NCBI GenBank assembly: GCA_043806595.1
Contig: JAZDGU010000004.1
Location: forward strand, 8,353 to 72,352
Length of the DNA stretch: 64,000 nucleotides
Source of the DNA: Candidatus Micrarchaeota archaeon
Lineage (GTDB): Archaea; Micrarchaeota; Micrarchaeia; Norongarragalinales; SBBD01
Direction of reading: 5' to 3'
The translations under genes and the position numbers were made by a program. The notes beneath the pieces are model-generated. The model made no database searches and was not told where the DNA came from. It saw nothing but the letters and a program-made list of their open reading frames with translations. Positions 1,072 through 55,321 of the stretch are shown here, piece by piece (the stretch's first letter is position 1; every line of letters starts with the position of its first letter).

Positions 1072-1478
1072 ACTTGGAGGTCGTGGCAGACACGAACGTA
1101 ATCGTGGCGGCAATCCTGCGGAGGGGGCTTACGCGCAACCTCATCTTCAGCGCAGGGTTGCAACTGATTTCGCCGGATTTCGCATATCAGGAAATCAAAA
1201 ACCACGAGGAAGAGTATCTAAAAAAGTCGGGACTCGAACACAAGGCTTTCGAGCGATCCGTCGAAATCGTGCTTTCGCGAATCACGCCAATACCTGAAGA
1301 GGAATACGGGGGCCAACAAGCGACTGCCAAGGAATTCTCCCCGGATTTGGCGGACTGGCCTTTCTTTGCCTTGTCTCTTGTGAAAAAATGTCCTCTCTGG
1401 AGCAACGACCGCGTGTTGAAAAAGCAAAACCGCGTGCAAGTGATAAGCACGCCGGAACTGCTGGAAATGCTCGGATAA
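1068..1478 (+). CDS. PIN-domain toxin (VapC-like, paralog 1 of 3)
   Basis: 136 aa with acidic PIN residues (VVADTNVIV ... SNDRV). 4-bp overlap with the upstream antitoxin. Paralogs at 21316 and 56909. Confidence 0.7.
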   Translation: MNLEVVADTNVIVAAILRRGLTRNLIFSAGLQLISPDFAYQEIKNHEEEYLKKSGLEHKAFERSVEIVLSRITPIPEEEYGGQQATAKEFSPDLADWPFFALSLVKKCPLWSNDRVLKKQNRVQVISTPELLEMLG

Positions 1479-5994: not shown

Positions 5995-6720
5995 CTACGA
6001 ATAGGCGGGGTTGTTCTGCATCTCGTCGTAGTCGGTGTGCATGGCCTTTATCTTGCTCATGTTGTCCGCGATTTTCTCCTGAATCGCCTTGCCCTCGGCC
6101 TCGAGCTGCTTGACGTCGACGTCCAGCCCCACGACGGCCTTGACCTTGTTCAGCAGCATTGCCGCGCGCTGGGGCGCCATCGGCAGGTCCACCTGCACCA
6201 GCAGGTTCGCCGCGGGGATGCCCTCGGAGGCGCATTCCGCGATGAGGATGCCGCTCACGCCCTGCGTCGCGCCCTCGCGCACGAGCTCTATGTCGAACTT
6301 GCGGAGCTTGTCGGCCATCTTCTTCGTCGAGCAGATGCCATAGACCTTGGAATCCGGGGTCTGCGACGCTATGCCAGCGAGGGAGTAGATTTCCGAGGCG
6401 TTCTTGTCCTTGGCGTACTTGATTATGCGCTGCGAGAGCGCGTAGACGACCTCCGCGGGTATCATGAACTCGGAAAAGAGGATGATGAGGTTGTGCTCCT
6501 CGCTCGCGTAGATGCGCGCCGGGGACATCGGCACGAAGTCGTGTATCGCGGCAATCGGCGGGAAGTGCGAGCTCTGTATGTAGCCGACGAGTTTCATCTT
6601 CAGCTTGTCGGCGAGGAACGAGGAGGAAATCGTGCCGATCATGCCGACGCCGGGGAATCCCTCGATGATTACGGGGTTCTTCAGCCTGACCTTTGCTACT
6701 TCGCGGATTTCCACGAGCAC
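5995..6720 (-). CDS. proteasome assembly chaperone PAC2 family protein
   Basis: 241 aa. IIEGFPGVGMIG is recalled from memory as the PAC2/ATP-grasp-like signature. Typical archaeal size. Confidence 0.7.
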   Translation of the reverse strand: MLVEIREVAKVRLKNPVIIEGFPGVGMIGTISSSFLADKLKMKLVGYIQSSHFPPIAAIHDFVPMSPARIYASEEHNLIILFSEFMIPAEVVYALSQRIIKYAKDKNASEIYSLAGIASQTPDSKVYGICSTKKMADKLRKFDIELVREGATQGVSGILIAECASEGIPAANLLVQVDLPMAPQRAAMLLNKVKAVVGLDVDVKQLEAEGKAIQEKIADNMSKIKAMHTDYDEMQNNPAYS

Positions 6721-6730
6721 GGCGACTCCC

Positions 6731-6835
6731 CTAGAATTTGGTGAAGACGGTCTTCGCGTAGTATGCGACTATCGTCACGAACAGCACGGCCGTGCCGACC
6801 AGCAGAAGATACTCGATTGCAGCCTGCGCCTTCAT
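6731..6835 (-). CDS. Flp-like type IV prepilin (class III signal peptide), 34 aa
   Basis: Hand-translated: MKAQAAIEYLLLVGTAVLFVTIVAYYAKTVFTKF. AQAAIEYLLL resembles the Flp/archaeal prepilin processing motif (G/A-x-x-A-I-E-Y). ATGA-overlapped with the upstream TadC-like gene. Confidence 0.55.
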   Translation of the reverse strand: MKAQAAIEYLLLVGTAVLFVTIVAYYAKTVFTKF

Positions 6836-7647
6836 GCGAACACCCGCGCGCCCGCCACCGCCCGGAAAACGAGCAGCGAAAACGGGGCAACAATACACAG
6901 ATACACGCCCGCTTTTTTAATGTTCCCCTCCTGCAGCGCCACGAAGCACGAGGACAGCGCGGAGAAGAGGAACAGGTAGAGCTGGCAGGCGAGAAAGAAC
7001 GCCGGCGGCACCGGCGCCGCGCCGTCAAGGGAGGCAAGGGACGCGCTCGACTGGATAAGGGAGCCGAGGATGAAGGGAAGCAGCAAGGCAGCCGCGGCGA
7101 GCAGCGTGTACTTCTGCAGGGACGCCAGCGCGGCGCCCTCTTCCGACAGGCGGAGCATTTCCCCGGCGTCCTCGGCGACGCCGTGGACCGCGCGCGAGAG
7201 CTGGCCGCCGGACTCGTGGAGCGAGACAAGCATGCGGGAGGCGCGCGAGAACGCGGGGGAGCCGTATTCTGCGGAGACCGCGGCGAACGCCCTGGCTGCT
7301 GGCACGCCGCGCCCGGCCATGGCAGAAACCCGCGCGAACGCGGAGCCGGTCTCGCCGCCGCAGGACGCGGCCTCGCAAAGCAGCTTCTCGAAGGGGGCGC
7401 CGGGAGGGGCCGAGGTCATGCGGAACAGCGCGGAGGGCAGGCCAAGCTCGAGGCCGCGGACTCTCCTTGAGAAGGCGTATTCCTCGAGCGCGGGGACGAG
7501 GAGCAGCGCTGCTGCCGCGGAATATGCGATGAGCAGGTAATCCGCTGCGAGGCCGCGGAACGCCGCGAACGCGACCGCGGAAGCGAGAATTGACGCGACG
7601 AAGTAATGGGGCAGCCTGCTACGGAAGTACTGCCATGCGGGTCCCAT
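6832..7647 (-). CDS. TadC/GspF-domain membrane protein (one T2SS-F domain)
   Basis: 271 aa, TM segments at both ends with a cytoplasmic GspF-like core (LVSLHESGGQLSRAVHGV). ATG abuts the stop of the 1129-aa gene. Confidence 0.55.
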   Translation of the reverse strand: MGPAWQYFRSRLPHYFVASILASAVAFAAFRGLAADYLLIAYSAAAALLLVPALEEYAFSRRVRGLELGLPSALFRMTSAPPGAPFEKLLCEAASCGGETGSAFARVSAMAGRGVPAARAFAAVSAEYGSPAFSRASRMLVSLHESGGQLSRAVHGVAEDAGEMLRLSEEGAALASLQKYTLLAAAALLLPFILGSLIQSSASLASLDGAAPVPPAFFLACQLYLFLFSALSSCFVALQEGNIKKAGVYLCIVAPFSLLVFRAVAGARVFA

Positions 7648-10600
7648 CTAGAGTTCCACCTTCCGCGGGCGGTTGCGGGCGAGCGCGGTTCCGGCAAGCG
7701 CGGCGAGGCCGACGGGGGCGAGCCATAGGTAGTCCGGCTGGTTGGATGGAACCGAGCGGGGGACGAGGCGGGCCGAGATTTCGGATGCGGCAAGGTAGGC
7801 GTCGAGATAAAGCTCCTGCGAGATGCCGGCGTCGATTGCCTCGAGGGCTAGCCTGTCCTCCTCGCCGCCGAACTGGCCTACGCGGCTACGCGCGATTTCC
7901 GCCTGATCCAGCGCCATCTCCCGGATTTCCGAGTTGTATGAGTAAAGCGCCGAGGAAGCGCCTTGCAGGGATGCGAGGAAACTCGAGATTCTTGCCGCAG
8001 ACTGCCTGCCCAGCACATCCGGGTCCTTCTCCACAGCATTCGCAACCGCATCGAGCTGCTTGAGTGCAGCCGAAGCCGACTTGAATTCCGCTGCTGCGGC
8101 TGCGGCAAGCGCGGGCTTGCCCGCCCTGGAGGACGAGAAGAAGCGGGAATATTCCTCAATGGCGGTCGAAAAATCCGTTCGCGAGGCCGAGAAGTTCTCC
8201 AGCAGTTCGGAGACCGCCTGCGTCGAATCGGGTGCGCCTTCCGCGCCGGCCGGGTTCCATGCGGCCGCGGATGCCGGCGCGCCTACAGCGTCGGACGCGG
8301 GCGGGGGCGTCGCAAGGATTGCGGGCTGCGCGCCCTCCATCGACGCAAGGGACTGTTCGACCTCGTAGGCGGCCTCGAGCGCCTCCTCCCAACGCGAATC
8401 CAAGGCAAGGCTCTTGGCGTCCGAGAGTTTGGCCTGAAGCGGGGAATCCGGCACGGACGCAAGGCGTTCATCGAGCTCGGCGAGCTTGAGCCGGAACGCA
8501 TCCTCGGAGAAGCCCGCGCATTCGACGGACAGCGCGACGGAACGGGCCTCGCCCTCGCGCCAGGCACCTGAAGAAAGCCTCGCCCAGAGCATTCCTCCGG
8601 CATGCCCGACCGACGCCTTCAGTTCTGGCGGGAAGGACGCATTCGCGGAAAGTATTTCGCACGGCAGGGAGTCGTCGAACCGGAGTTCCGCGGAGCCGAG
8701 GTCCGAAAAAACGTTCCGGTAGTGTAGCGCGTAATCGAACCGTACGGGCAGGCCGTAAACGGGAACCGTTGTCCGGGAGGCGGAATGCTCGAACGGGTTT
8801 GCGGAGAAGAATGTGATTTCCAGATCGGTCCTGCCGGATGCAGCGTCGAGGACCAGCTCCAGCCAGCCTTTGGAGAACGTATCGCCGTAGGGCGCGGAAG
8901 ACGACACGGAATAATTCGAGCCCGGGGGAGCCCGAATCCGGAACAGCACGGGCAGGGGCAACGAGGAGTCGATTGAAACGGAAACCGCCTTCTCGGCGGA
9001 ATCCAGCCCAGCGGCAGACGCGCGCTCATTCATTGCGACAATCCGCGACGGCACCGCGGAGAAGGCGATGGCGACGGAATAATCCGATTGGATTACGCCG
9101 GAGAAGACCGCGCGCAGGCCGCCCTGACCCGATTCAACGGAAAGTCCGGGGGAGGCGTTCACAACGCGGGCGTCGGAGGCGTTGAACGGAAGGGCGACAT
9201 AAAACTTTTCCGGGGACTCGAAGGGCAAGGAATTCCCGAATGAGACCCGGGCTTCAACGTCGGCCCGCGCCCCAGGCTCGGTGGGGACAGCTGAAAATTG
9301 GACGAGCATGCTCCCCTCCAGCTCGCCCTGGATAAGCCGGCCTTTGTCCTTCTCCACGCCTGCGCGCACTGACGAGAGAAAAACCCGCATCGGCTTGAGG
9401 CGCCCGACGGCCTGCAAAGGGTCCAACTTGCCGCCGTGGAAAAACCCGGAATAAGCGGAAAGTGCATCGCGCTCGCCCGCCGAAAGGAACGCCTCCGCGG
9501 CCTCGGCGAATGCGAAGTCGGATTCGACGGAAGCGAACTCCTCGAACGCAGCGCGCCGCAGGCCTTCCTCGATGCCCAACAGTTCTCCGGAAAGAACCCT
9601 GACCGCGGCGTAATTGCCCTCGGAAGGCTCGGACAGGCGGCCGAGTGCGGACGCAACGGTCGACAGCCTCTGCCGGAACGCGGTGACGTCGATGCCGTCC
9701 TTCTCCGCGCCGGCGAGAAGGCCGCCGAGGCGCTGCGCCGCGCCTTCCGCCTCGGAATGGGCGAAGGCATATGCGTCCTGCGCGCCGCATGCCTCGCGGA
9801 TCCTGCCGAGGAAGACCAGCTGGGCCAGCAGGTGCGTGATCCTCGCGCCCGCCGAATTCTTCGACGCGTATTCGACGCGCATCTTCCCGAAATCGGAGAG
9901 CATCGACTGGAGCACGGCATACGATACCGGCTCGCCGCGCCTGCCTTCGGCAAGGAGCCTCACTTCCGCTTCTTCCCTCGCGGACCTTCCCTCGAGCAGC
10001 ATGCGCGCCGAGGACGCCGACTCCATGAGCTCGCCCCCGCCGTCCGAAATTCCCTCGAGGATGGCGAGTGCGCGCCGGCGCAGGACCACGGCGCGGCCGA
10101 GGTAGCCGCGGCTCCTCGCCGAAAGCAAATCATCCGCCTGCCTGGCAACCAGCTTTGCGAGCGACCCGTCCTCCTCGAGTGCGCGCACCCCGTCCTTGAA
10201 GGAGACCGGCCCGCTTGAGGGCTCGAAGATGCCGCCGTAGATGTACGGATACGCCTCCTCCGGGATGTCGGCAAGCTCCTCCTGCTTGATGCGGGCGAGC
10301 ACTGCATCCGCGGCCAGCCGTGCCACCTCGAGTGCCTCGCCGAGGCTCCGGCTCGCCTGCCACATGCCGGTTATGGATTCGTCGATGCGGCGGGCAAGCG
10401 AAAAAGTGCACGCCAGCACGGAATTCGGGCCGGCGAGGTCCTGCAGCACCGACAAATTGGCGATGTTCGCGAGGTAGTCCTCGCTGAGGGCGCGGAGCTT
10501 TGACGAAGACGAGACCATCCTCTGCCCGAGGGAGGTGCCGTCCGACGACGAGGAAAGGAGATGGCGCTCGGTCTCCCTGATTTCGTTGCGCACGCCCTGG

Positions 10601-11037
10601 GCGAAGTCATCGGACTCGTCCTGCAGGGCCTCGAACTCCGCGAACCGCGAGTCAAGCGCCTCGAGTCCGGCGCGGGCAGCCGAGGACGCCTCGTTGAGCG
10701 CGTCGACGGCCAGGTAGTGGCAGCCGAGGACGACGAGCGGCCGCAGGTGCGGGGCGATGTGGAACACATCCTGCACGGATGCGAGCAGCTTAGCGTGCCG
10801 GAGGTGCGTGCGGGCGGAATCGTAGTGCGCAAGCGCCTTGGCGAAACCCGCGCCTTGCAGCACGGGCAGCCCATCGAGGTCCATCGCCGACACGTAGCGG
10901 CAATTCGAGGACAGCGAGGCGAGCTTGACGAAGGAGACGTGCACTTCCGGAAGAAGGTAGTTGTATTCCGAAAGCGATGAGGCGCCCGCGAGGAACGCGA
11001 GCAAAAGCGAGGCAAAGACGGCACGCAAGCGAATCAC
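7648..11037 (-). CDS. large secreted alpha/beta protein, N-terminal signal peptide and C-terminal TM anchor with basic tail (1129 aa)
   Basis: Signal-like N-terminus (MIRLRAVFASLLLAFLAGASS). Ala/Leu/Glu/Arg-rich helical halves flank a Ser/Val-rich beta region. C-terminus LAPVGLAALAGTALARNRPRKVEL. No Walker A motif. Translationally coupled to the TadC-like gene. Confidence 0.6.
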   Translation of the reverse strand: MIRLRAVFASLLLAFLAGASSLSEYNYLLPEVHVSFVKLASLSSNCRYVSAMDLDGLPVLQGAGFAKALAHYDSARTHLRHAKLLASVQDVFHIAPHLRPLVVLGCHYLAVDALNEASSAARAGLEALDSRFAEFEALQDESDDFAQGVRNEIRETERHLLSSSSDGTSLGQRMVSSSSKLRALSEDYLANIANLSVLQDLAGPNSVLACTFSLARRIDESITGMWQASRSLGEALEVARLAADAVLARIKQEELADIPEEAYPYIYGGIFEPSSGPVSFKDGVRALEEDGSLAKLVARQADDLLSARSRGYLGRAVVLRRRALAILEGISDGGGELMESASSARMLLEGRSAREEAEVRLLAEGRRGEPVSYAVLQSMLSDFGKMRVEYASKNSAGARITHLLAQLVFLGRIREACGAQDAYAFAHSEAEGAAQRLGGLLAGAEKDGIDVTAFRQRLSTVASALGRLSEPSEGNYAAVRVLSGELLGIEEGLRRAAFEEFASVESDFAFAEAAEAFLSAGERDALSAYSGFFHGGKLDPLQAVGRLKPMRVFLSSVRAGVEKDKGRLIQGELEGSMLVQFSAVPTEPGARADVEARVSFGNSLPFESPEKFYVALPFNASDARVVNASPGLSVESGQGGLRAVFSGVIQSDYSVAIAFSAVPSRIVAMNERASAAGLDSAEKAVSVSIDSSLPLPVLFRIRAPPGSNYSVSSSAPYGDTFSKGWLELVLDAASGRTDLEITFFSANPFEHSASRTTVPVYGLPVRFDYALHYRNVFSDLGSAELRFDDSLPCEILSANASFPPELKASVGHAGGMLWARLSSGAWREGEARSVALSVECAGFSEDAFRLKLAELDERLASVPDSPLQAKLSDAKSLALDSRWEEALEAAYEVEQSLASMEGAQPAILATPPPASDAVGAPASAAAWNPAGAEGAPDSTQAVSELLENFSASRTDFSTAIEEYSRFFSSSRAGKPALAAAAAAEFKSASAALKQLDAVANAVEKDPDVLGRQSAARISSFLASLQGASSALYSYNSEIREMALDQAEIARSRVGQFGGEEDRLALEAIDAGISQELYLDAYLAASEISARLVPRSVPSNQPDYLWLAPVGLAALAGTALARNRPRKVEL

Positions 11038-11080: not shown

Positions 11081-11332
11081 TTAAATCGTTGCCGGGGGGT
11101 CTTCGGGAGGCTTGAATCCGGGTTCGGGCCCGAGGCCCTCAAGCTCGCTCGCGATGGCCGAGCGGGCGAACCCCTGCGATTCGCGCTCGCGGCGCGCCTC
11201 AAGCGCATCGTCGCGCTCGGCCTCGCGCCTGCCCTTCATGCGGTAGAACACGAGGACAAACGCGCCGACGACCAGGAGCAATACGGCCACCAGCCCGAGG
11301 ACTGCGAGAAGCCGCGCGCCGAATTCGTCCAT
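11081..11332 (-). CDS. small single-TM membrane protein
   Basis: 83 aa, TM helix LLAVLGLVAVLLLVVGAFVLVF then a charged tail. First gene of the pilus-like operon. Confidence 0.45.
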   Translation of the reverse strand: MDEFGARLLAVLGLVAVLLLVVGAFVLVFYRMKGRREAERDDALEARRERESQGFARSAIASELEGLGPEPGFKPPEDPPATI

Positions 11333-11337
11333 GAGCG

Positions 11338-11679
11338 CTATTTCCGCCTCTCCTTCTCTAGGACAACGGCAGTGCCGTAGGCGTAGATGTCAATCGTCGC
11401 CGGGAGGATCTGCGTGGAGTTCATCTGGACGCCGAGAACCGCATTCGCGCCGAGGAGCCTTGCCTGCTCAGCGAGGCCGTGCACGATGTCCTTGCGCGCC
11501 TCGTTCATCATGTGCCGGTACGCGTGCGACTCGCCGCCGGCGAGCGATTTCGTGACGGCTATGAGGTCGTGAGCGAAGCTCCTGCTTCTCGCCGTAGAGG
11601 TCCACACGAGGCCCTTGTGCTCGCTGACGCAGTAGCGCGGAACCTGGTGCAGCGTCGAAATGATTACCTTCTCTGGCAA
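11338..11679 (-). CDS. YbjQ/UPF0145 family protein
   Basis: 113 aa with GANAVLGVQMNSTQI ... AYGTAVV, typical of UPF0145. Confidence 0.7.
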   Translation of the reverse strand: MPEKVIISTLHQVPRYCVSEHKGLVWTSTARSRSFAHDLIAVTKSLAGGESHAYRHMMNEARKDIVHGLAEQARLLGANAVLGVQMNSTQILPATIDIYAYGTAVVLEKERRK

Positions 11680-11685
11680 GATTCC

Positions 11686-13074
11686 TCACCTTCTCAGGAA
11701 GCCCTCGGCGCGCAGGACGTATGCGCAGAGGCCTTCCGACAAACCCTTGTTTCTCCCGGCCGCCTTTAATATGCTTCCCCCGGAGAGGATGCGCGCCTTG
11801 GAAAACGGCTTGAGGAAGTGGGACGCGACGCCGAGGCTGCGCCCGCGGGCGCGCGCTCCGGCGAGGAACGACTCGGCGGAACCGCCGGAGGCCTCCTCGA
11901 CGAATACCCTCCCGCCCTCGACGTACGGCCCGCGCAGCACGCGGCCGTGGCTGGCGAGGAACTTCGAGACGTCCTTCTCCAGTGTCACCGGCGGGCCCGC
12001 GCGCCGCTTCAGCTTGGGCGCGGATGCGGATTCGAGCTCGAAGACGAGCGCGCACTCTGACCCCGTGCAGAACGAATGCGAGCCGAACACGCGGAAGCCC
12101 TCGAGCGCGAGGTGCCGCTCGAGCGAGCGCTGGGTGTGGCGCAGCTGGGGAACGAGGATGTCGGACACGATCCCCTTCGGCGAGGGCATGACCATGACGA
12201 CCATGTGCATGCGCCGGACAAGCGTCTTGGAGAGCAGCGCGCTGCTGCATGGAAGCCTCTTGGGGAAAAGCAGCTGCAGGGAAGGCCTTGCGAGGAACTC
12301 ACGAGCCAGCAGGATGAGACGCGAGAAGTTGGTCTCGCTGATTGCCGCTGCGGCATTGCGGTTGCAGTCGACGAAGTCCACGAGCACTAGGTGGTGCTGG
12401 AACTTCGCGCGCAAGGCGTCCTCCTCACCGTCGTAGGCGCCCTCGATGTCGAGAATCACCGGCGGAACCCATTTCGCGGCGCTCTGGAGGAGGCCGTGGA
12501 GCGAGCGGTAGTTGAGCACGAGATATTCGCAGACGAGGCCCGAGAAGCCCTCGACCTCGGCCTCGGCGCCATAAATCCCGTGCGACTTGAGCAGCTGCTT
12601 CAACAGACGCACGTCGCGCTTCTGTCTAGAGGAAAGGTGCTTCTGCAGGTAGAGCGCGTGCAGCGGCGTGCGGTCAACTGCGGAGGCGAGCGCCTCGTTC
12701 TCGACTATGCGGTAGCACGGGATGACCTCGACCTTGAAGCCCCGCACCACCGCCTGCAGGTACGGGTGCTCAGCGTAATGCATCTCCCAGTCGGGGTGCA
12801 CGGCGAGTGCCGCTCTCCGGGTTAGCTCGACTATCTCGTCGCGGCTGCGCTCCTTGGAGAAGGAAATGAACAAGTCTATGTCGCGGTCGCCGGCGATTCC
12901 CGTGTCGCGGGCGGCGCTGCCGACGAAATTGACCTCCGCATCCTTCGGGAGCCTGCTCGCGAGCCGCTTTGAGGCCTGCGAGGCGAACCTCTTCTCGGCC
13001 TTCAGCTCGGCTGCCGAGGGCGTGATGCGCCTGCTCGCCGCGGCGAAGACCTTCTCGCACTCCTTCTCCCCCAT
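11686..13074 (-). CDS. cca: CCA-adding enzyme (archaeal class I tRNA nucleotidyltransferase)
   Basis: 462 aa. GSAARDTGIAGDRDIDLFISF is the archaeal CCA-enzyme nucleotidyltransferase motif. Confidence 0.85.
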   Translation of the reverse strand: MGEKECEKVFAAASRRITPSAAELKAEKRFASQASKRLASRLPKDAEVNFVGSAARDTGIAGDRDIDLFISFSKERSRDEIVELTRRAALAVHPDWEMHYAEHPYLQAVVRGFKVEVIPCYRIVENEALASAVDRTPLHALYLQKHLSSRQKRDVRLLKQLLKSHGIYGAEAEVEGFSGLVCEYLVLNYRSLHGLLQSAAKWVPPVILDIEGAYDGEEDALRAKFQHHLVLVDFVDCNRNAAAAISETNFSRLILLAREFLARPSLQLLFPKRLPCSSALLSKTLVRRMHMVVMVMPSPKGIVSDILVPQLRHTQRSLERHLALEGFRVFGSHSFCTGSECALVFELESASAPKLKRRAGPPVTLEKDVSKFLASHGRVLRGPYVEGGRVFVEEASGGSAESFLAGARARGRSLGVASHFLKPFSKARILSGGSILKAAGRNKGLSEGLCAYVLRAEGFLRR

Positions 13075-20823: not shown

Positions 20824-20978
20824 CCGTTTCCTCCCCTCGGGGCAACCATTAAAAACCTGCTTTCCCAAACAATTGGTGTCAGCGGTCATAGGCCGGGGGC
20901 AACACCCGTTCCCTTTTCGAACACGGAAGTAAAGCCCCGGTGCGATTCCGTCGGTACTGCCCTGCGGGTGGGAAAGCG

Positions 20979-21013
20979 GGATACCGCTGCGCTTCAACAA
21001 CCCCCAGCGCAGC
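20979..21013 (+). repeat. direct-repeat / hairpin element, upstream copy flanking RHH-PIN module 2
   Basis: GATACCGCTGCGCTT (15 nt exact) plus CAACAACCCCCAGCGCAGC. The inverted GCTGCGC/GCGCAGC arms can form a hairpin. Second copy at 21734. Confidence 0.5.
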
Positions 21014-35413: not shown

Positions 35414-35539
35414 CGAGGCAAGGTCATGGCGAAATAAACTTCAATAATACCCTTAAAAATGGAGGTTAAAAAGGAGGCTGCCTGGGGGGCGGCAGCGGGA
35501 GAAAAGACATTTATTAACCCGGCAATGCACTTGACGGTA

Positions 35540-36406
35540 ATGCACAACGCGGCGCGCGGCCAGGCCGCGCTGGAGTACGTCATACTGCTCGCAGGCATAC
35601 TCCTCATCATCTTCCTCACCATAGCGGTCATGCAGGCGCTGCAGGGGCGCTCAAAAGCTCAGATTGAGGAGAGCGTGGGGACGTGGAAAACGTTCGTCTG
35701 CCTCTCCAAGTACCTCGCCGAACCCGACAGCACGCTGCTCGCATACAAGCTCGACGGCCTGCAGGGCGGGACAACGCCGGACTCCAGCGCCAAGCACAAC
35801 GACGGCATCCTCAAGGGCGGCCTTCCCACGCTCGACTCGGCGAACTGCAAGTTCCCGCCGTGCCTTCACTTCGGCGCAGCCCCGGGCCACGTCGAGAGCA
35901 GCAAGCCCATCGAGGGCGTGGGGAGCATGACGTTTCTGGCTTGGATAAGATTCGACGACAGCGGGGACGGCAGCCAGCCCGTCATAGCGGCCATCGCCAA
36001 CTCGTTCGACCTCTCGTTCACGCAAGTCGATTACATAGTCTGGTCGATGGACGACCCTCCCCCGCCGGCCATGGAAGCCGCGTTCCACTTCTCGGTCTGG
36101 ACCGGCCTCTTCAACCCCGTAATAGTGGATCCGGAGGACATGACCCTCGAGGGATACCACCACATCGCCGCGACGTACAACGAAACCACAGGCACGGCGA
36201 ACGTCTACATCGACGGCAGGCTCAATGCCACTGTAAGCGGCCCTGCGAACAAGCCGATGTGGCACTCCAATCTGCCGCTGTCAGTGGGCAACAAGCAGAA
36301 CGACGCGTCACAGGCGTTCAAGGGCAACATCGACCAGGTCGAGTTCTACAGCAGGGAGCTGACCGCGGAGGAAATCATGCAGGAGATAAGGTGCCAGCCC
36401 GCCTGA
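35540..36406 (+). CDS. class III signal peptide (pilin-like) protein with LamG/concanavalin-like lectin domain
   Basis: N-terminus MHNAARGQAALEYVILLAGILLIIFLTIAV is prepilin-like. C-terminal FKGNIDQVEFYSRELTAEEI matches the Laminin_G_3 signature. TATA TTTATTAA about 25 nt upstream suggests a leaderless start (35525 is an alternative). Confidence 0.65.
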   Translation: MHNAARGQAALEYVILLAGILLIIFLTIAVMQALQGRSKAQIEESVGTWKTFVCLSKYLAEPDSTLLAYKLDGLQGGTTPDSSAKHNDGILKGGLPTLDSANCKFPPCLHFGAAPGHVESSKPIEGVGSMTFLAWIRFDDSGDGSQPVIAAIANSFDLSFTQVDYIVWSMDDPPPPAMEAAFHFSVWTGLFNPVIVDPEDMTLEGYHHIAATYNETTGTANVYIDGRLNATVSGPANKPMWHSNLPLSVGNKQNDASQAFKGNIDQVEFYSRELTAEEIMQEIRCQPA

Positions 36407-36887
36407 ACCTGCGCTTCATCCTGCGAAGGCCGGCAAGGATCTTCGCGTTGTGCGAGCCCCGCCAGTAGGCCTTGCCGCACGAGCCGCAGACGAGGAATTC
36501 CGCCGCATGAAGCCAGGACTTCCTCGGCACTTTGCCTTCCAACGATTTTTTCGGCGTTTTCTTCAGGCGGCCGCTGCACTCGGGACAGACAGACGTGCTC
36601 GGCACCGAATCCTCCCGGATTGCGGAAAGGTCGAGGCCGGCGGCCCTGCAGAACTCCAGCACCTGGCCGTCGAGGTCCGAGGAACGCAGGAGCAGGCAGC
36701 GGCAGTAGCTCGATGATTTTACAGAGAGAGCGACGTCGCGGGTCACGAGGACAGCCCTCTCCCCGATGCACTGGCGGATTATGTCGTCGTCGGATTGCGA
36801 GCGCGGGGGCGAGACACGAACGCCGAGCATGCGCAGCCAGCGCGCGAGCCTCGCGAGCATCACGTCGGCGACGAAATTCATGCGCAT
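36375..36887 (-). CDS. Mut7-C RNase domain (DUF82) protein with C-terminal zinc ribbon
   Basis: 170 aa. N-terminus MRMNFVADVMLARLARWLRMLGV matches the Mut7-C/DUF82 start. C-terminal CPECS ... CGSCG. 32-nt convergent overlap with the LamG gene. Confidence 0.65.
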   Translation of the reverse strand: MRMNFVADVMLARLARWLRMLGVRVSPPRSQSDDDIIRQCIGERAVLVTRDVALSVKSSSYCRCLLLRSSDLDGQVLEFCRAAGLDLSAIREDSVPSTSVCPECSGRLKKTPKKSLEGKVPRKSWLHAAEFLVCGSCGKAYWRGSHNAKILAGLRRMKRRFRRAGTLSPA

Positions 36888-36951
36888 GAATGGCTCTCCG
36901 CGGGGAGCGGTTATAAAGGCTTATATACGCCGCGAGGGAAAGGCAGTCATG

Positions 36952-39051
36952 CCGCCCAAGCAGAGGAAGGCGAAGGAGGAGAAGTTCGAGTCGCTCTACA
37001 CGCAGAAGTCGCAGGAATACGTCGAGGAGGAGAAGGAGCAGAGGAGGGAAAGCTTCTTCGTCGGGCTGACGCGGTTCATGTACTCCCGCAACAGGTCCGG
37101 CGGCGCGGGCGCTAAGTTCTCGCCGGAGCAGAAGGCGCTATTCGACTTCCTCAACTGGAACATCCCCGCGGAGGAGTACTACGCTACGGCGAAGGCGCTG
37201 CTGACCTACGGGCTGGGCGTCGGCGTGGTGTTCGGCGCGGCGTTCTATTTCTACCTCGGGCCGGAGCTCACGACGGACACGATGATGATATACCTCGGAA
37301 GCCTACTGTGTCTGCTCCTGCCGGTGACGCCGAGCATTTTCTACCAGTATTATCCGGGGATGGCGGCGGAGCGCGAGAGGATGCTTTCGCTCGCGTACAT
37401 CCCGGAGATCGTAAACTACCTCGTGATGAGCCTGAGGCTCAACCCCAACCTCGAGAAGGCCGTCGAGTTCGCGGCGAACCACGGCCGGGGGAAGATAGCG
37501 GACGAGCTCAAGGAGCTCGTATGGGAGGTGCAGATAGGGACGTTCCTCAGCGTGGAGGAGGGCCTGGACGCGATGGCTTACCGATGGGGGGGCTACAGCG
37601 ACGACTTCAAGCACGCGCTCATGATCATCCGCTCGTCCTCGCTGGAGACGGACCACGTGCGAAGGGTAGAGCTGCTGGAGAAGGCCTCGTTGGACGTGCT
37701 CGAGGGCAGCAAGGAGAAGATGGACATCTACGCGCGCAACTTGCACCAGCCGACGGTGTTCCTCTACTACTTCGGGATACTCCTGCCGCTCATGCTCGCC
37801 ATTATCCTGCCCATCGGGTCGGCGTTCGTGAAAGGCCTGCCGATCGCGCAGGCGGGGTTCATATTCCTCATATACTGCGTACTCCTGCCCGCGGGCATCT
37901 ACATCTACGGGAACAGCATCCTCGGGGGCAGGCCGCCGACTTACATCCCGCCGCAAATCACCGACCGCTACCCCGGGCTGCCGAGAAGGGGCAACATGCG
38001 GTTCCTCGGCATGGAGTTCTCGTACACCCTCGCGGCCGTGGTCGTCTTCGCCGCGGTGCTGCTCGCGGGCAACTTCGCGGACAACCTCACGCTCCAGCAG
38101 ATTCCGACGTACCTGCAGGACGAGTACCTCGCCTCGACGCCGCACGTGGAGCTGCTCGGGCTCAAGCTGTACGTGTTCTCGATACTCGCGGTGGTGCTTG
38201 CGGTAAGCTTCGCCTTCTCGGTCTACCTCTGGGGGAAGTTCGGCGAGCGGAAGAAGGTGCAGGACGAGATACGCGAGATGGAGAGGGAGTTCAAGGACGC
38301 GACGTACGTGCTCGCGTCGAGGCTGGGGGAGAACAAGCCTATGGAGGACGCGCTCGCCTACGCCATCGACTTCCTCCCGAAGAGCAAGGTCGGGGAGAAG
38401 TTCTTCAGGCGCGTGCTTGAGAACGTCACTTTGCTCGGCATGACGCTGGAAGCGGCCGCGTTCGACAGGACGTACGGCGCGCTGCGCTACATCCCCTCGC
38501 AGATCATCCGCAGCGGCACGAGGCTCATGGTGGACAGCGTGGAGCTCGGGGTCAACGTAGCCGCCAAGTCGCTCATGAGCCTCAGCTTCCAGATGAGGAA
38601 CGCCCAGAAGATAGACGAGACGCTGCGCAGGCTGCTCGCGGACATCACGACGCTGCTGAGCACCATGTCCACGTTCGTCGTGCCGGTAGTCATCGCCGTA
38701 GTCAGCTCGCTTCAGACCATCATCATAAACTCGTTCGCGGGCATGAGCCTCGGGGATTCTCTGGGGAACACCAACGTCCAGCTCGGCGGCCTGAGTTTCA
38801 AGGGCTTCTCGTCGCTGCTGGACACCTCCGGCATAAGGGAGACCACGGCGTCGCCCGGGGAGTTCCTCCTGATAATGGGGCTGTACGTGGTCGAGGTCGT
38901 CATACTGCTGACGTACTTCAACTCGCAGGTCGAGGACAGCAACAACAAGCTGCACACCTACACGAGCATCGCCAAGACGCTGCCCATCGCGGCGATAATC
39001 TTCGCCGTCACGGCGTTCCTCGCGAGCAGCACCCTCTCCGGATTCGGATGA
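36952..39051 (+). CDS. FlaJ/TadC-like polytopic membrane protein with two T2SS-F (GspF) domains
   Basis: 699 aa from the ATG preceded by GAGGGAAAGG. Two cytoplasmic GspF-like modules each followed by TM triplets. The ORF track starts at 36766. Confidence 0.7.
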   Translation, partial: PPKQRKAKEEKFESLYTQKSQEYVEEEKEQRRESFFVGLTRFMYSRNRSGGAGAKFSPEQKALFDFLNWNIPAEEYYATAKALLTYGLGVGVVFGAAFYFYLGPELTTDTMMIYLGSLLCLLLPVTPSIFYQYYPGMAAERERMLSLAYIPEIVNYLVMSLRLNPNLEKAVEFAANHGRGKIADELKELVWEVQIGTFLSVEEGLDAMAYRWGGYSDDFKHALMIIRSSSLETDHVRRVELLEKASLDVLEGSKEKMDIYARNLHQPTVFLYYFGILLPLMLAIILPIGSAFVKGLPIAQAGFIFLIYCVLLPAGIYIYGNSILGGRPPTYIPPQITDRYPGLPRRGNMRFLGMEFSYTLAAVVVFAAVLLAGNFADNLTLQQIPTYLQDEYLASTPHVELLGLKLYVFSILAVVLAVSFAFSVYLWGKFGERKKVQDEIREMEREFKDATYVLASRLGENKPMEDALAYAIDFLPKSKVGEKFFRRVLENVTLLGMTLEAAAFDRTYGALRYIPSQIIRSGTRLMVDSVELGVNVAAKSLMSLSFQMRNAQKIDETLRRLLADITTLLSTMSTFVVPVVIAVVSSLQTIIINSFAGMSLGDSLGNTNVQLGGLSFKGFSSLLDTSGIRETTASPGEFLLIMGLYVVEVVILLTYFNSQVEDSNNKLHTYTSIAKTLPIAAIIFAVTAFLASSTLSGFG

Positions 39052-52958: not shown

Positions 52959-53396
52959 ATGGCCAAGAGGGCGCAGGTGGGCGTCGAGATGTTCCTCGTG
53001 TTCAGCATAGCCCTCCTCGTGCTGTTCTGGTTCTCCAACTACCTCAACGCGTTCTCGTCGTCGGCCCAGAAAATCGGGGCGAACGAGCAGCAGAAGCTCG
53101 CGCTCAAGGACCTCGCGAAACTGGCGAACGACGTCTGCGTCATGCGCGCCAACCTGACCGTCAAGGCGCCGTGCATAACCGTGGGGAGCGAGAGCATGCT
53201 TTACCGGCTCTACGGCACCCTGCCGGCGAACGTGATCCGCATGAACAACACGTTCACGAACCATTCGAGCGCGGAGAAGGTCAACTGCAACGTCGACGTC
53301 ATGGTGCCGGACTACGTGCGGTGCACGTCGAGGGAAATGCTGTGCATGTACAAGTCCGGGGACGACGTGGTCATCACGAGGGGGGCATGCACTTGA
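52959..53396 (+). CDS. class III signal peptide pilin-like protein 1
   Basis: 145 aa. MAKRAQVGVEMFLVFSIALLVLFWF. TATA GTTTTAAAAACC 25 nt upstream. Cys-rich mature domain. Confidence 0.55.
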   Translation: MAKRAQVGVEMFLVFSIALLVLFWFSNYLNAFSSSAQKIGANEQQKLALKDLAKLANDVCVMRANLTVKAPCITVGSESMLYRLYGTLPANVIRMNNTFTNHSSAEKVNCNVDVMVPDYVRCTSREMLCMYKSGDDVVITRGACT

Positions 53397-53719
53397 GGGC
53401 GCAGGTTTTCAGCATAGACTTCGTCGTCGCGACGACCATACTCCTGCTCGGGCTCGGCATAGCCCTGCAGACCGTCGACCTCGTCCAGAAGGACGCCGAC
53501 ACCTACGCGAACATGCAGACCAACAACGCCGAAACCGTCGCGGAAGGCCTGATGCGTTCCGTAGAGGGGTTCGCCAACCACTCGCCGTACTGCTTCAGGT
53601 ACAGCAACGGCACCAGCACGTGCGGCGGCTTCTCCTGCGCGTTCAACACGTTCACCGCGACGAGGCTCGTCAACTGCGAGGGCGCGGTGTGCTCGATGGA
53701 GGTAAGGACCTGTGAATAA
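53387..53719 (+). CDS. class III signal peptide pilin-like protein 2
   Basis: 110 aa. MHLRAQVFSIDFVVATTILLLGLGIAL. Start overlaps the upstream stop. The ORF track merges it into 53171..53719. Confidence 0.5.
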   Translation: MHLRAQVFSIDFVVATTILLLGLGIALQTVDLVQKDADTYANMQTNNAETVAEGLMRSVEGFANHSPYCFRYSNGTSTCGGFSCAFNTFTATRLVNCEGAVCSMEVRTCE

Positions 53720-54710
53720 GGGATTCGTGTTCACCGCCGACGCGCTGTTCGCGCTCACCGCCATCTCCGTGCTGGCGACCTCGTACGTCATCATCCACTC
53801 CATCCAGTACCAGTCGCAGAAGTACGCCAGCCTCGAGAACCAGGGGAGGGACTACCTGCGGCTGGTGTACCGCGAGGGCTTCGCGAACTTCACGAACGAG
53901 TCCTTCCACGCACTGACGGGCCACAACTGCTACGGGTGCATCCAGAGTCCCTTCTGGGGCTTCGAGACGGAAGCGGACCTTGAGGACTGGACAATCATTT
54001 ATGGCTCTTGGCAGCTAAAAGACATAGGCGCAGGAGTCTCCCATATTGTCCTAATAGAGGCAGGTACCCCCGGCTTTTCAAATTCGACCATTACGACCGG
54101 CAAATACTACTGGAGCAACTACTCGGTCAGCGCCAAGGTTGCCATGGGAACCACAGGATCCACGGATATAATGGGAATAGGCATTTATTCCAACAGCACC
54201 GGCGGCAGGTACGTTTGCGCTCTTGATTTCAGAACCGGCACATACTACATTGCCGTCTACAAGGCGTTCAACTCGACCAGTCCGTATGTTCTGCCGGCGG
54301 ATACCGCCGTCGCAAGAACGCCACTGCCGGTAGGATATGACTCGCATGTGTTCCACGACCTCAACGTCTCCGCATTCGGCGGGGTAGTCAACTGCTCCAC
54401 ATACGATAATACGAACACAATCAGCGCCGTTTACTACGACCCCAACCCCCTCGACAGCGGCAAGGTGACCCTGGGACGTGGAGAATACCAAAGCGCGGCA
54501 CAATACGATAACATTACCATCAATTTCGTCGCCGGGTACCCGCCGAGGGACGTGCCGTTCGTGATGCGCAGCTCGATGCTCACCTACCCGTGGGAGTGCG
54601 GGTGCAGCCCTTACGAGCCGAACTGCTCGATTAGCAACGCTTCGCCGTGCCTGCGCTACCAGGAGCCGCTGGAAGCGGACTGGGTGAAGCACGAGGTCTG
54701 GGTGAACTGA
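53712..54710 (+). CDS. pilin-like secreted protein 3 with large N-glycosylation-sequon-rich domain
   Basis: 332 aa. MNKGFVFTADALFALTAISVLA, then more than 15 NxS/T sequons. 8-nt overlap upstream, ATGA overlap downstream. Confidence 0.55.
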   Translation: MNKGFVFTADALFALTAISVLATSYVIIHSIQYQSQKYASLENQGRDYLRLVYREGFANFTNESFHALTGHNCYGCIQSPFWGFETEADLEDWTIIYGSWQLKDIGAGVSHIVLIEAGTPGFSNSTITTGKYYWSNYSVSAKVAMGTTGSTDIMGIGIYSNSTGGRYVCALDFRTGTYYIAVYKAFNSTSPYVLPADTAVARTPLPVGYDSHVFHDLNVSAFGGVVNCSTYDNTNTISAVYYDPNPLDSGKVTLGRGEYQSAAQYDNITINFVAGYPPRDVPFVMRSSMLTYPWECGCSPYEPNCSISNASPCLRYQEPLEADWVKHEVWVN

Positions 54711-55321
54711 TGAGAAAAGCTTTCTTCTCGTTCGTCGTGATCGCCGCGGTGTCGGTGGCGCTCATGCTGCTCGCGGCCTACGCCAAGTCGTGGTACGACT
54801 ACAGGAACACCGCGAACTACGACCTCGAGGTGCGGCTCGTCGACCAGAGGGCGAACGACAGCGAGACTTTCATCAGCGGCATGCTCGACGACATCGTGGT
54901 TGACTCCGCTTACAGCACGTGGGGCTGCAAACCGTCGGATACCGGACCGGCGGGGCCGTACAGCCTCTGCACCGAGGCGAGCAACTCGAGGATGCCGGCA
55001 TACTGGAGGGCAGTCGCCAACCTCTCGACCGCAGGCGTGACGTTTTACAACAATACCGAGTATTATTTCAGATGCGGATGGCTCTCTTGGGTCAACAAAA
55101 CCGCCGCACCAAAATACAACTATACCGAATACATCCTCAATCTCACAGTAAACTATACGGTCAACACATCCCATGCCGCGGTCAACCACACGTTGCTGAT
55201 GATAAACAAGCGGTTCGATGTCAATAGCAGCAACATGGCCAACGGCAAGTACATCAATATAACGATTTTCAACGCCGCGTTCGGGAGGGCGTATTCCTAT
55301 TACGTCGACTGCACGGTCTGA
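54710..55321 (+). CDS. signal-anchored extracellular protein 4 (sequon-rich)
   Basis: 203 aa from MRKAFFSFVVIAAVSVALMLLAAY. Many NxT/S. The ORF track starts at 54647. Confidence 0.5.
   Translation: MRKAFFSFVVIAAVSVALMLLAAYAKSWYDYRNTANYDLEVRLVDQRANDSETFISGMLDDIVVDSAYSTWGCKPSDTGPAGPYSLCTEASNSRMPAYWRAVANLSTAGVTFYNNTEYYFRCGWLSWVNKTAAPKYNYTEYILNLTVNYTVNTSHAAVNHTLLMINKRFDVNSSNMANGKYINITIFNAAFGRAYSYYVDCTV

Follow-up and report, generated by a model that had tools for sequence, protein, structure and literature searches.

A conserved 34-codon gene overlapping a T2SSF-family platform gene in Micrarchaeota encodes a type IV pilin-like micro-protein with a class III signal

The window (the whole 64-kb stretch of DNA analysed here, from a Candidatus Micrarchaeota MAG, with a G+C content of approximately 62%) carries on its minus strand a 34-codon open reading frame (ORF) that is a genuine gene. 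This conclusion draws on three lines of evidence that were counted as independent: a match to a protein family model, synteny and codon pattern. We consider it probable that this micro-ORF is translated into a minimal 'head-less' type IV pilin-like protein that is handled by a membrane platform protein and that, we are inclined to think, is present in low copy number. The features of the locus are as follows.

6835..6731, minus strand: 34-codon ORF encoding a type IV pilin-like micro-protein of the class III signal type, translated as MKAQAAIEYLLLVGTAVLFVTIVAYYAKTVFTKF (34 aa) followed by the stop
6827..6835, minus strand: predicted leader Met-Lys-Ala (3 residues), with a putative class III signal peptidase site after Ala3 (KA/Q)
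6734..6826, minus strand: predicted mature peptide of 31 residues, QAAIEYLLLVGTAVLFVTIVAYYAKTVFTKF
6841..6844, minus strand: GGTG, Shine-Dalgarno-like, at -9..-6 from the ATG and within the 3' end of the T2SSF gene
6832..7647, minus strand: T2SSF-family (TadB/TadC/PilC-like) single-domain membrane platform protein, 271 aa (PF00482, 28.5 bits; cutoff 25.2)
7648..11037, minus strand: large protein of approximately 1,126-1,129 aa, with no Pfam or NCBIfam family
5995..6720, minus strand: PAC2 proteasome-assembly-chaperone family gene (PF09754, 132.5 bits)
11081..11332, minus strand: 83-aa ORF
11338..11679, minus strand: YbjQ-family protein
11686..13074, minus strand: archaeal CCA-adding enzyme

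Read on the minus strand, 6731..6835 runs ATG AAG GCG CAG ... TTC TAG (its ends are ATGAAGGCGCAGGCT...AAATTCTAG), with the TAG stop at 6733-6731. An original prediction, made without stating the strand, had placed a 34-aa ORF here and had described an ATGA overlap with the upstream gene. Both are borne out: the ATG of the micro-ORF (6835-6833) lies on the TGA (6834-6832) of the minus-strand ORF at 6832..7647, a 4-nt overlap. The accompanying remark that the gene is easily missed holds for the ortholog in GCA_018819225.1, which is uncalled by NCBI and called by ENA and JGI, but not for the micro-ORF itself, which the NCBI record of the source genome annotates as MFH1106338.1, 'class III signal peptide-containing protein'. 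Orthologs are called in two other NCBI records, so that of three such records examined one lacks the gene. A 55-aa version beginning at the in-frame GTG at 6898 was rejected: its added residues come from reading the end of the T2SSF gene in a different frame, and the conserved ATG is the start in all orthologs. The sole match in a word-index protein search with this extended ORF was the peptide itself, and Rfam and tRNA scans gave no overlap with the locus.

The protein parses as M-K-A followed by QAAIEYLLLVGTAVLFVTIVAYYAKTVFTKF, with Gln at +1, Glu at +5 and Tyr at +6. The mature peptide is laid out as a single hydrophobic helix containing E5 and Y6, then K25 and a 6-residue tail. The archaeal FlaFind motif, [KRDE][GA][ALIFQMVED][ILMVTAS] (PMC4307647), is matched by K-A-Q-A, which is followed by IEYLLLVGTAVLFVTIVAYYA. 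Class III signal peptides have a short hydrophilic leader with a small final residue, then approximately 21 mainly hydrophobic residues with an interrupting Glu5 (PMC4471445), and the hydrophobic tract with Glu5 seen here matches that definition. The motif points to cleavage at KA/Q by a class III signal peptidase. The KAQ/AA site first proposed lies one residue further on; the single mature helix of about 30 residues that was proposed with that site agrees with the 31 aa found. PibD is reported to process leaders of 3-4 residues and FlaK to require at least five (PMC4307647), so a leader of three residues is at the known lower limit.

The micro-ORF product reaches 24.7 bits on PF04021 (Class III signal peptide), for which the curated cutoff is 23.7. 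With this one protein run on 24,736 models, E is 2.2e-5, and the match covers positions 2-26 of the 27 in the model. Three of the four family members scanned match the same model, with a best E-value of 7e-6. On score and cleavage motif, that is, from its sequence, the peptide is assigned to PF04021. The original prediction had staked the pilin identification on agreement with pilin models, and here the agreement is good: PF04021 accepts the peptide, K-A-Q-A fits FlaFind, and the gene lies directly after a T2SSF gene. The use of the word 'pilin' in the sense of a fibre subunit is something that we infer. An exhaustive phmmer search of 1.84 billion representatives gave two relatives at E < 1e-3, both of 34-35 aa, a 34-aa query being blind to remoter or longer class III proteins. 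Sequence and profile searches of the PDB with the peptide gave chance matches to the synthetic peptide retatrutide alone, and no relative.

The order large (approximately 1,100-aa) protein, single-domain T2SSF, 33-38-aa ORF and PAC2 is also found on four other Micrarchaeota contigs. The peptides and their junctions with T2SSF are listed here.

Window locus, Candidatus Micrarchaeota MAG: MKAQAAIEYLLLVGTAVLFVTIVAYYAKTVFTKF (34 aa), ATGA overlap
L001, GCA_018819225.1 and its ENA and JGI versions: MKLWNRRKAQPAIEYLLALGMGVVFVTIIAYFVKNAVQ (38 aa), 17-nt spacer
L027, GCA_043807785.1: MKAQGTLEYLLMLGTAVALVTIISYFLKTALTKTS (35 aa), ATGA overlap
L028, ENA contig: MKAQTAIEYLLLVGVGVVLVTMLAYFVKLVANRW (34 aa), ATGA overlap
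L029, Logan contig reached via the large-protein homolog: MKAQTAIEYLLLVGAGVVFVTIVAYFVKVGLNR (33 aa), ATGA overlap

Loss of the frame in orthologous loci had been named beforehand as the result that would speak against the gene. The frame is kept in all four orthologous loci, and the ATGA overlap in four of the five loci with the window counted. All five also retain the start, a length of 33-38 aa and 11 invariant residues (Q1, E5, Y6, L7, L8, G11, V14, V17, T18, Y22 and K25). K-A-Q is present in all five and M-K-A-Q is invariant in four; at +2, the fourth position of the motif, L001 has Pro and L027 has Gly, and neither residue belongs to the strict FlaFind set. The leader is 3 aa long, but 9 aa in L001. 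Mature lengths are 29-32 aa, which makes the protein little beyond the class III signal peptide itself. GGTG occurs in five of five loci, at -9..-6 in the window, L027, L028 and L029 and at -12..-9 in the intergenic spacer of L001; its conservation is consistent with a ribosome-binding element. Two further readings of the junction were ruled out: a frameshift fusion of T2SSF and the peptide (the 17-nt spacer parts the two genes in L001), and a split-off final transmembrane (TM) helix of T2SSF (T2SSF proteins of both high-GC and low-GC loci keep their own C-terminal helix).

Across all ten pairwise comparisons, 19-27 of 31 codons are identical at positions 1 and 2, against 8-16 of 31 at position 3, and each pair has 8-14 synonymous codon differences. 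Values of dN range from 0.26 to 0.40; dS reaches 0.84 in one comparison and 1.44 in another, and four more are saturated. Purifying selection acts in exactly the frame of the micro-ORF, and because the codon-position signature lies in that frame, spurious ORFs overlapping it on the plus strand are not its source. The mature peptides are 42-77% identical across loci versus 31-52% for their T2SSF neighbours: the conservation of the peptide equals or exceeds that of the adjoining platform protein.

The gene upstream of the micro-ORF at 6832..7647, whose product is named 'type II secretion system F family protein' by NCBI, has a T2SSF ortholog next to, and always upstream of, the micro-ORF at all four orthologous loci. 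AlphaFold2 (AF2) models of the locus are poor, with a pLDDT of 60.8 for the T2SSF protein and 50.9 for the large protein; a Foldseek search with the T2SSF model gave meaningless membrane-protein matches alone, and a PDB profile search with T2SSF gave nothing. The large protein is encoded with no gap before the start of T2SSF. It opens with an N-terminal signal-like segment; long helices take up approximately 500 residues, the middle is beta-rich, and a TM segment anchors the C-terminus (..LWLAPVGLAALAGTALARNRPRKVEL). Its homologs lie directly upstream of T2SSF in L001, L027, L028 (end only) and L029, and are 25-46% identical to the protein in the window. On the other side, 10 nt separate the micro-ORF from the downstream PAC2 gene; this neighbour is conserved, which does not imply a functional link.

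Motif scans of the 64-kb window found no Walker-A T2SSE ATPase and no A24 GxGD-type prepilin peptidase. In L001, a T2SSE ATPase and two more T2SSF genes are located approximately 7 kb upstream of the module: L001 1..2927 (plus strand) carries T2SSE and two single-domain T2SSF genes, giving three T2SSF paralogs in 9 kb with a DnaJ gene between. On the L028 contig, a 35-aa minus-strand gene called by ENA at 1090..1197 corresponds by tblastn to the plus-strand start of the PAC2 ortholog and is likely a miscall at the contig end. A 5S rRNA gene was found in the window at 20878..20992 on the plus strand (Rfam RF00001, 63.3 bits), and ARAGORN identified no tRNA genes across the whole 64 kb.

A search with a T2SSF alignment returned 22 metagenome loci, 21 of which are distinct from the L001 contig and all of low G+C content (28-43%); the same alignment used in a scan of GTDB genomes returned one locus, already known, and no others. 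PAC2 comes immediately after T2SSF in all five high-GC loci, as it does in about 17 of the 21 low-GC ones (L006-L026). This adjacency joins unrelated functions, and it is strikingly conserved with no obvious rationale. Between T2SSF and PAC2, all 21 low-GC loci lack a class III micro-ORF, and none has a detectable homolog of the large protein, which among the loci compared is kept only where the micro-ORF is present. The micro-ORF and the large protein thus co-occur in one higher-GC clade (52-63% G+C). Since low-GC T2SSF-PAC2 loci lack the micro-ORF, the peptide is not generally required by this family of T2SSF platforms. One low-GC relative, L010, has a classical layout, in which a gene for a 506-aa class III adhesin is followed by T2SSE-T2SSF-T2SSF-PAC2.

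Other pilin-like genes are found in the window. A 315-aa ORF at 35459..36406 has the class III motif ..MHNAARG/QAALEYVILL.. (PF04021, 22.3 bits, just below the cutoff) together with a Laminin_G_3 domain (75 bits), and is followed by a 761-aa membrane protein that scores 24.3 bits against T2SSF, just below the cutoff of 25.2; window 35459..39051 (plus strand) is a second pilin/platform pair. Four consecutive ORFs at approximately 52959..55321 (plus strand), directly downstream of a TctA-family transporter gene, have pilin-like N-termini (MAKRA/QVGVEMFLVF.., ..MHLRA/QVFSIDFVV.., MNKG/FVFTADALFAL.. and MRKA/FFSFVVIAAV..). Their Pfam signals are weak (PF04021, E = 0.033; DUF7288/DUF7287, below cutoff), and the run looks like a minor-pilin cluster. 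These further class III-type genes indicate that the organism evidently uses the class III pathway.

With respect to known pilins, the micro-ORF product is best compared with two groups. The first comprises the Epd-type 'head-less' pilins of Methanococcus maripaludis (MMP1685/EpdE, arCOG06620), with which it shares Gln at +1 and Glu at +5 after a basic-small pair, the lack of a globular C-terminal domain and association with a single-domain (TadC-like) platform. The peptide is approximately half the size, however, with a precursor of 34 aa and a mature form of 31 aa versus approximately 70 aa for the small archaeal Epd-type major pilins, which are usually encoded by stand-alone genes (PMC4858521), whereas the micro-ORF overlaps the platform gene. 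Unlike the EpdE-type pilins, it has no N-glycosylation sequon, and neither EppA nor another peptidase was seen in the window. With its single-domain platform, the locus type resembles 'system 1' (Epd-like) or 4A; either 'system 1' or 4A systems with single-domain platforms have been reported in DPANN, and 'system 1' also in methanogens (bioRxiv 10.64898/2026.04.22.720090).

The second group is the Flp/Tad pilins (PF04964; Caulobacter crescentus PilA, PDB 8U1K), which are 40-60 aa long and consist of alpha1 alone (PMC10710030). Tad systems are considered descendants of archaeal Epd-like ones (bioRxiv 10.64898/2026.04.22.720090, PMC10710030, PMC11067988). C. crescentus PilA has a mature form of 45 aa and a 14-residue leader (PMC11067988). 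Assembly of PilA requires its Glu5/Tyr6 pair (precursor residues Glu19/Tyr20), for which processing has no need, and in Tad pilins this pair makes inter-subunit hydrogen bonds (PMC11067988). The micro-ORF product likewise consists of a single alpha-helix, is associated with a single-domain platform and has Glu5-Tyr6 in the same register, with x-A-I-E-Y at the mature N-terminus of both. It differs in that the -1 residue is Ala rather than Gly, the leader is 3 aa versus 14-26 aa (PMC4471445, PMC10710030), and the mature form is 31 aa versus 40-60 aa (PMC10710030). The window peptide has no match to Flp_Fap (PF04964) at E <= 1, and one ortholog matches at a non-significant E = 0.11. BLASTP gave no significant alignment with C. 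crescentus PilA, the sequence used for it agreeing with the residue numbers in PMC11067988. Of the 'Flp-like AIEY' label given originally, the E5-Y6 motif stands; these searches do not place the peptide in the Flp family, and the resemblance goes no further than that motif.

The preferred explanation, a minimal pilin-like protein handled by its neighbouring platform, can be set out as a series of steps. The micro-ORF would be co-translated with the upstream T2SSF gene by way of the ATGA overlap and the internal GGTG, two features that are present in the DNA and from which coupling may be expected. By analogy with its family, the product should insert into the membrane with its N-terminus in and C-terminus out. 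The motif suggests that a PibD/EppA-type class III signal peptidase, encoded outside the window, would then cut after Ala3 to expose Gln1, and that the neighbouring platform protein would engage the resulting 31-residue helix, using an ATPase encoded elsewhere and acting in trans. The role towards which we lean is that of a priming or minor subunit. Alternatively, a low-copy product may build a fibre of the Flp/Epd-like kind that is very short or thin, acting with the platform paralog and the approximately 1,100-aa surface protein. We lean towards low copy because the gene has no promoter space of its own and is tied in stoichiometry to, and overlaps, a gene for a membrane platform, and because the window holds several longer pilin-like genes while small archaeal major pilins usually have stand-alone genes (PMC4858521).

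Points in favour of this explanation are the PF04021 match, K-A-Q-A, Glu5, the invariant E5/Y6 pair, adjacency to T2SSF, the recurring module, the retained ATGA and GGTG, selection, the length of 33-38 aa, the other class III-type genes of the window and the T2SSE ATPase upstream of the module in L001. Against it stand a leader of just three residues that ends in Ala, the Pro (L001) and Gly (L027) at +2, the failure to match Flp_Fap or any PDB sequence, the lack of a prepilin peptidase or T2SSE ATPase within the 64-kb window, and the low-GC relatives without a micro-ORF. In addition, a mature form of 29-32 aa is shorter than every pilin shown to polymerise (Tad, 40-60 aa, PMC10710030; archaeal, approximately 70 aa, PMC4858521).

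A second explanation casts the peptide as the major subunit of a Flp/Epd-like pilus that would be very thin, built from thousands of 31-residue helices by the platform and an ATPase in trans, with the E5-Y6 network holding the core and the short K-x5 tail forming the surface. Fibres can be built from a lone alpha1 helix, as Tad and Epd pilins demonstrate (PMC10710030, bioRxiv 10.64898/2026.04.22.720090); the adjoining platform gene and the invariant E5/Y6, shared with the hydrogen-bonding pair of Tad pilins (PMC11067988), would suit such a role. However, the peptide falls approximately 14 residues below the shortest characterised pilin, which would leave almost no hydrophilic surface, and its gene is third or fourth in a tight co-directional string, overlapping the gene for a low-abundance membrane protein, whereas small archaeal major pilins typically have genes that stand alone (PMC4858521). 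Several longer pilin candidates are also available in the window, and we regard a major-pilin role as unlikely.

We give a rather lower probability to a third explanation, in which the micro-protein, processed or not, is a single-pass membrane protein outside any filament and acts as an accessory or regulatory partner of T2SSF. The model for this is the pilin H-domain of Haloferax volcanii, which is regulatory and whose loss is suppressed by mutations in ArlI/ArlJ (PMC10983859). As with the H-domain of PilA1-6, a pilin hydrophobic helix would act alone, there with genetic links to the T2SSF-family protein ArlJ. The H-domain of H. volcanii belongs to full-length pilins, whereas here it is the whole gene product, and no archaellum genes were seen in the window. 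The peptide is indeed H-domain only, its ATGA coupling suggests production at roughly 1:1 with the platform, and the module lacks an ATPase. The invariant K-A-Q and E5/Y6, on the other hand, argue for recognition by the pilin pathway, as does a PF04021 score above threshold. If the peptide is processed, a T2SSF partner and the preferred explanation are compatible.

The last explanation, that the ORF is non-functional (either a frame opened by chance in GC-rich DNA, or what decay has left of the 5' part of a longer pilin gene), could appeal to its very short length, the many spurious ORFs of high-GC DNA and its absence in low-GC relatives, but is effectively refuted by the retention of frame, start, length and the 11 invariant residues in five of five loci while synonymous sites are saturated, by a Pfam match over the curated threshold and by peptide identity (42-77%) set against that of T2SSF (31-52%).

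The annotation of MFH1106338.1 was already in the source record, and the identification itself is therefore not new. The protein is a new, unusually minimal member of the known class III signal peptide family. The literature searched contained no description of a conserved pilin-class protein so short, nor of a module comprising a large protein, an orphan platform paralog and a mini-pilin. It is tempting, if doubtful, to see here the smallest functional type IV pilin-class subunit (29-32 residues, alpha1-N only), part, with its dedicated single-domain platform paralog and the approximately 1,100-aa anchored surface protein, of a new three-gene TFF-derived module confined to a high-GC Micrarchaeota clade. 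That the helix of this module builds an ultra-thin fibre, or controls or displays the giant protein in the membrane, we hold to be just as speculative.

Class III ORFs of 30-40 codons that overlap T2SSF genes are real and inconsistently called. If the peptide is processed and assembled, it would bring the minimum size of a type IV filament subunit down to approximately that of the hydrophobic alpha1-N helix alone, would provide a natural minimal system for what the platform, peptidase and ATPase need of a pilin, and would bear on the origin of the head-less Epd and Tad pilins. If instead it is retained in the membrane with the platform, it would show in a genome a pilin 'H-domain' regulator that stands on its own, extending the Haloferax observation to the DPANN archaea, whose host attachment runs via surface structures.
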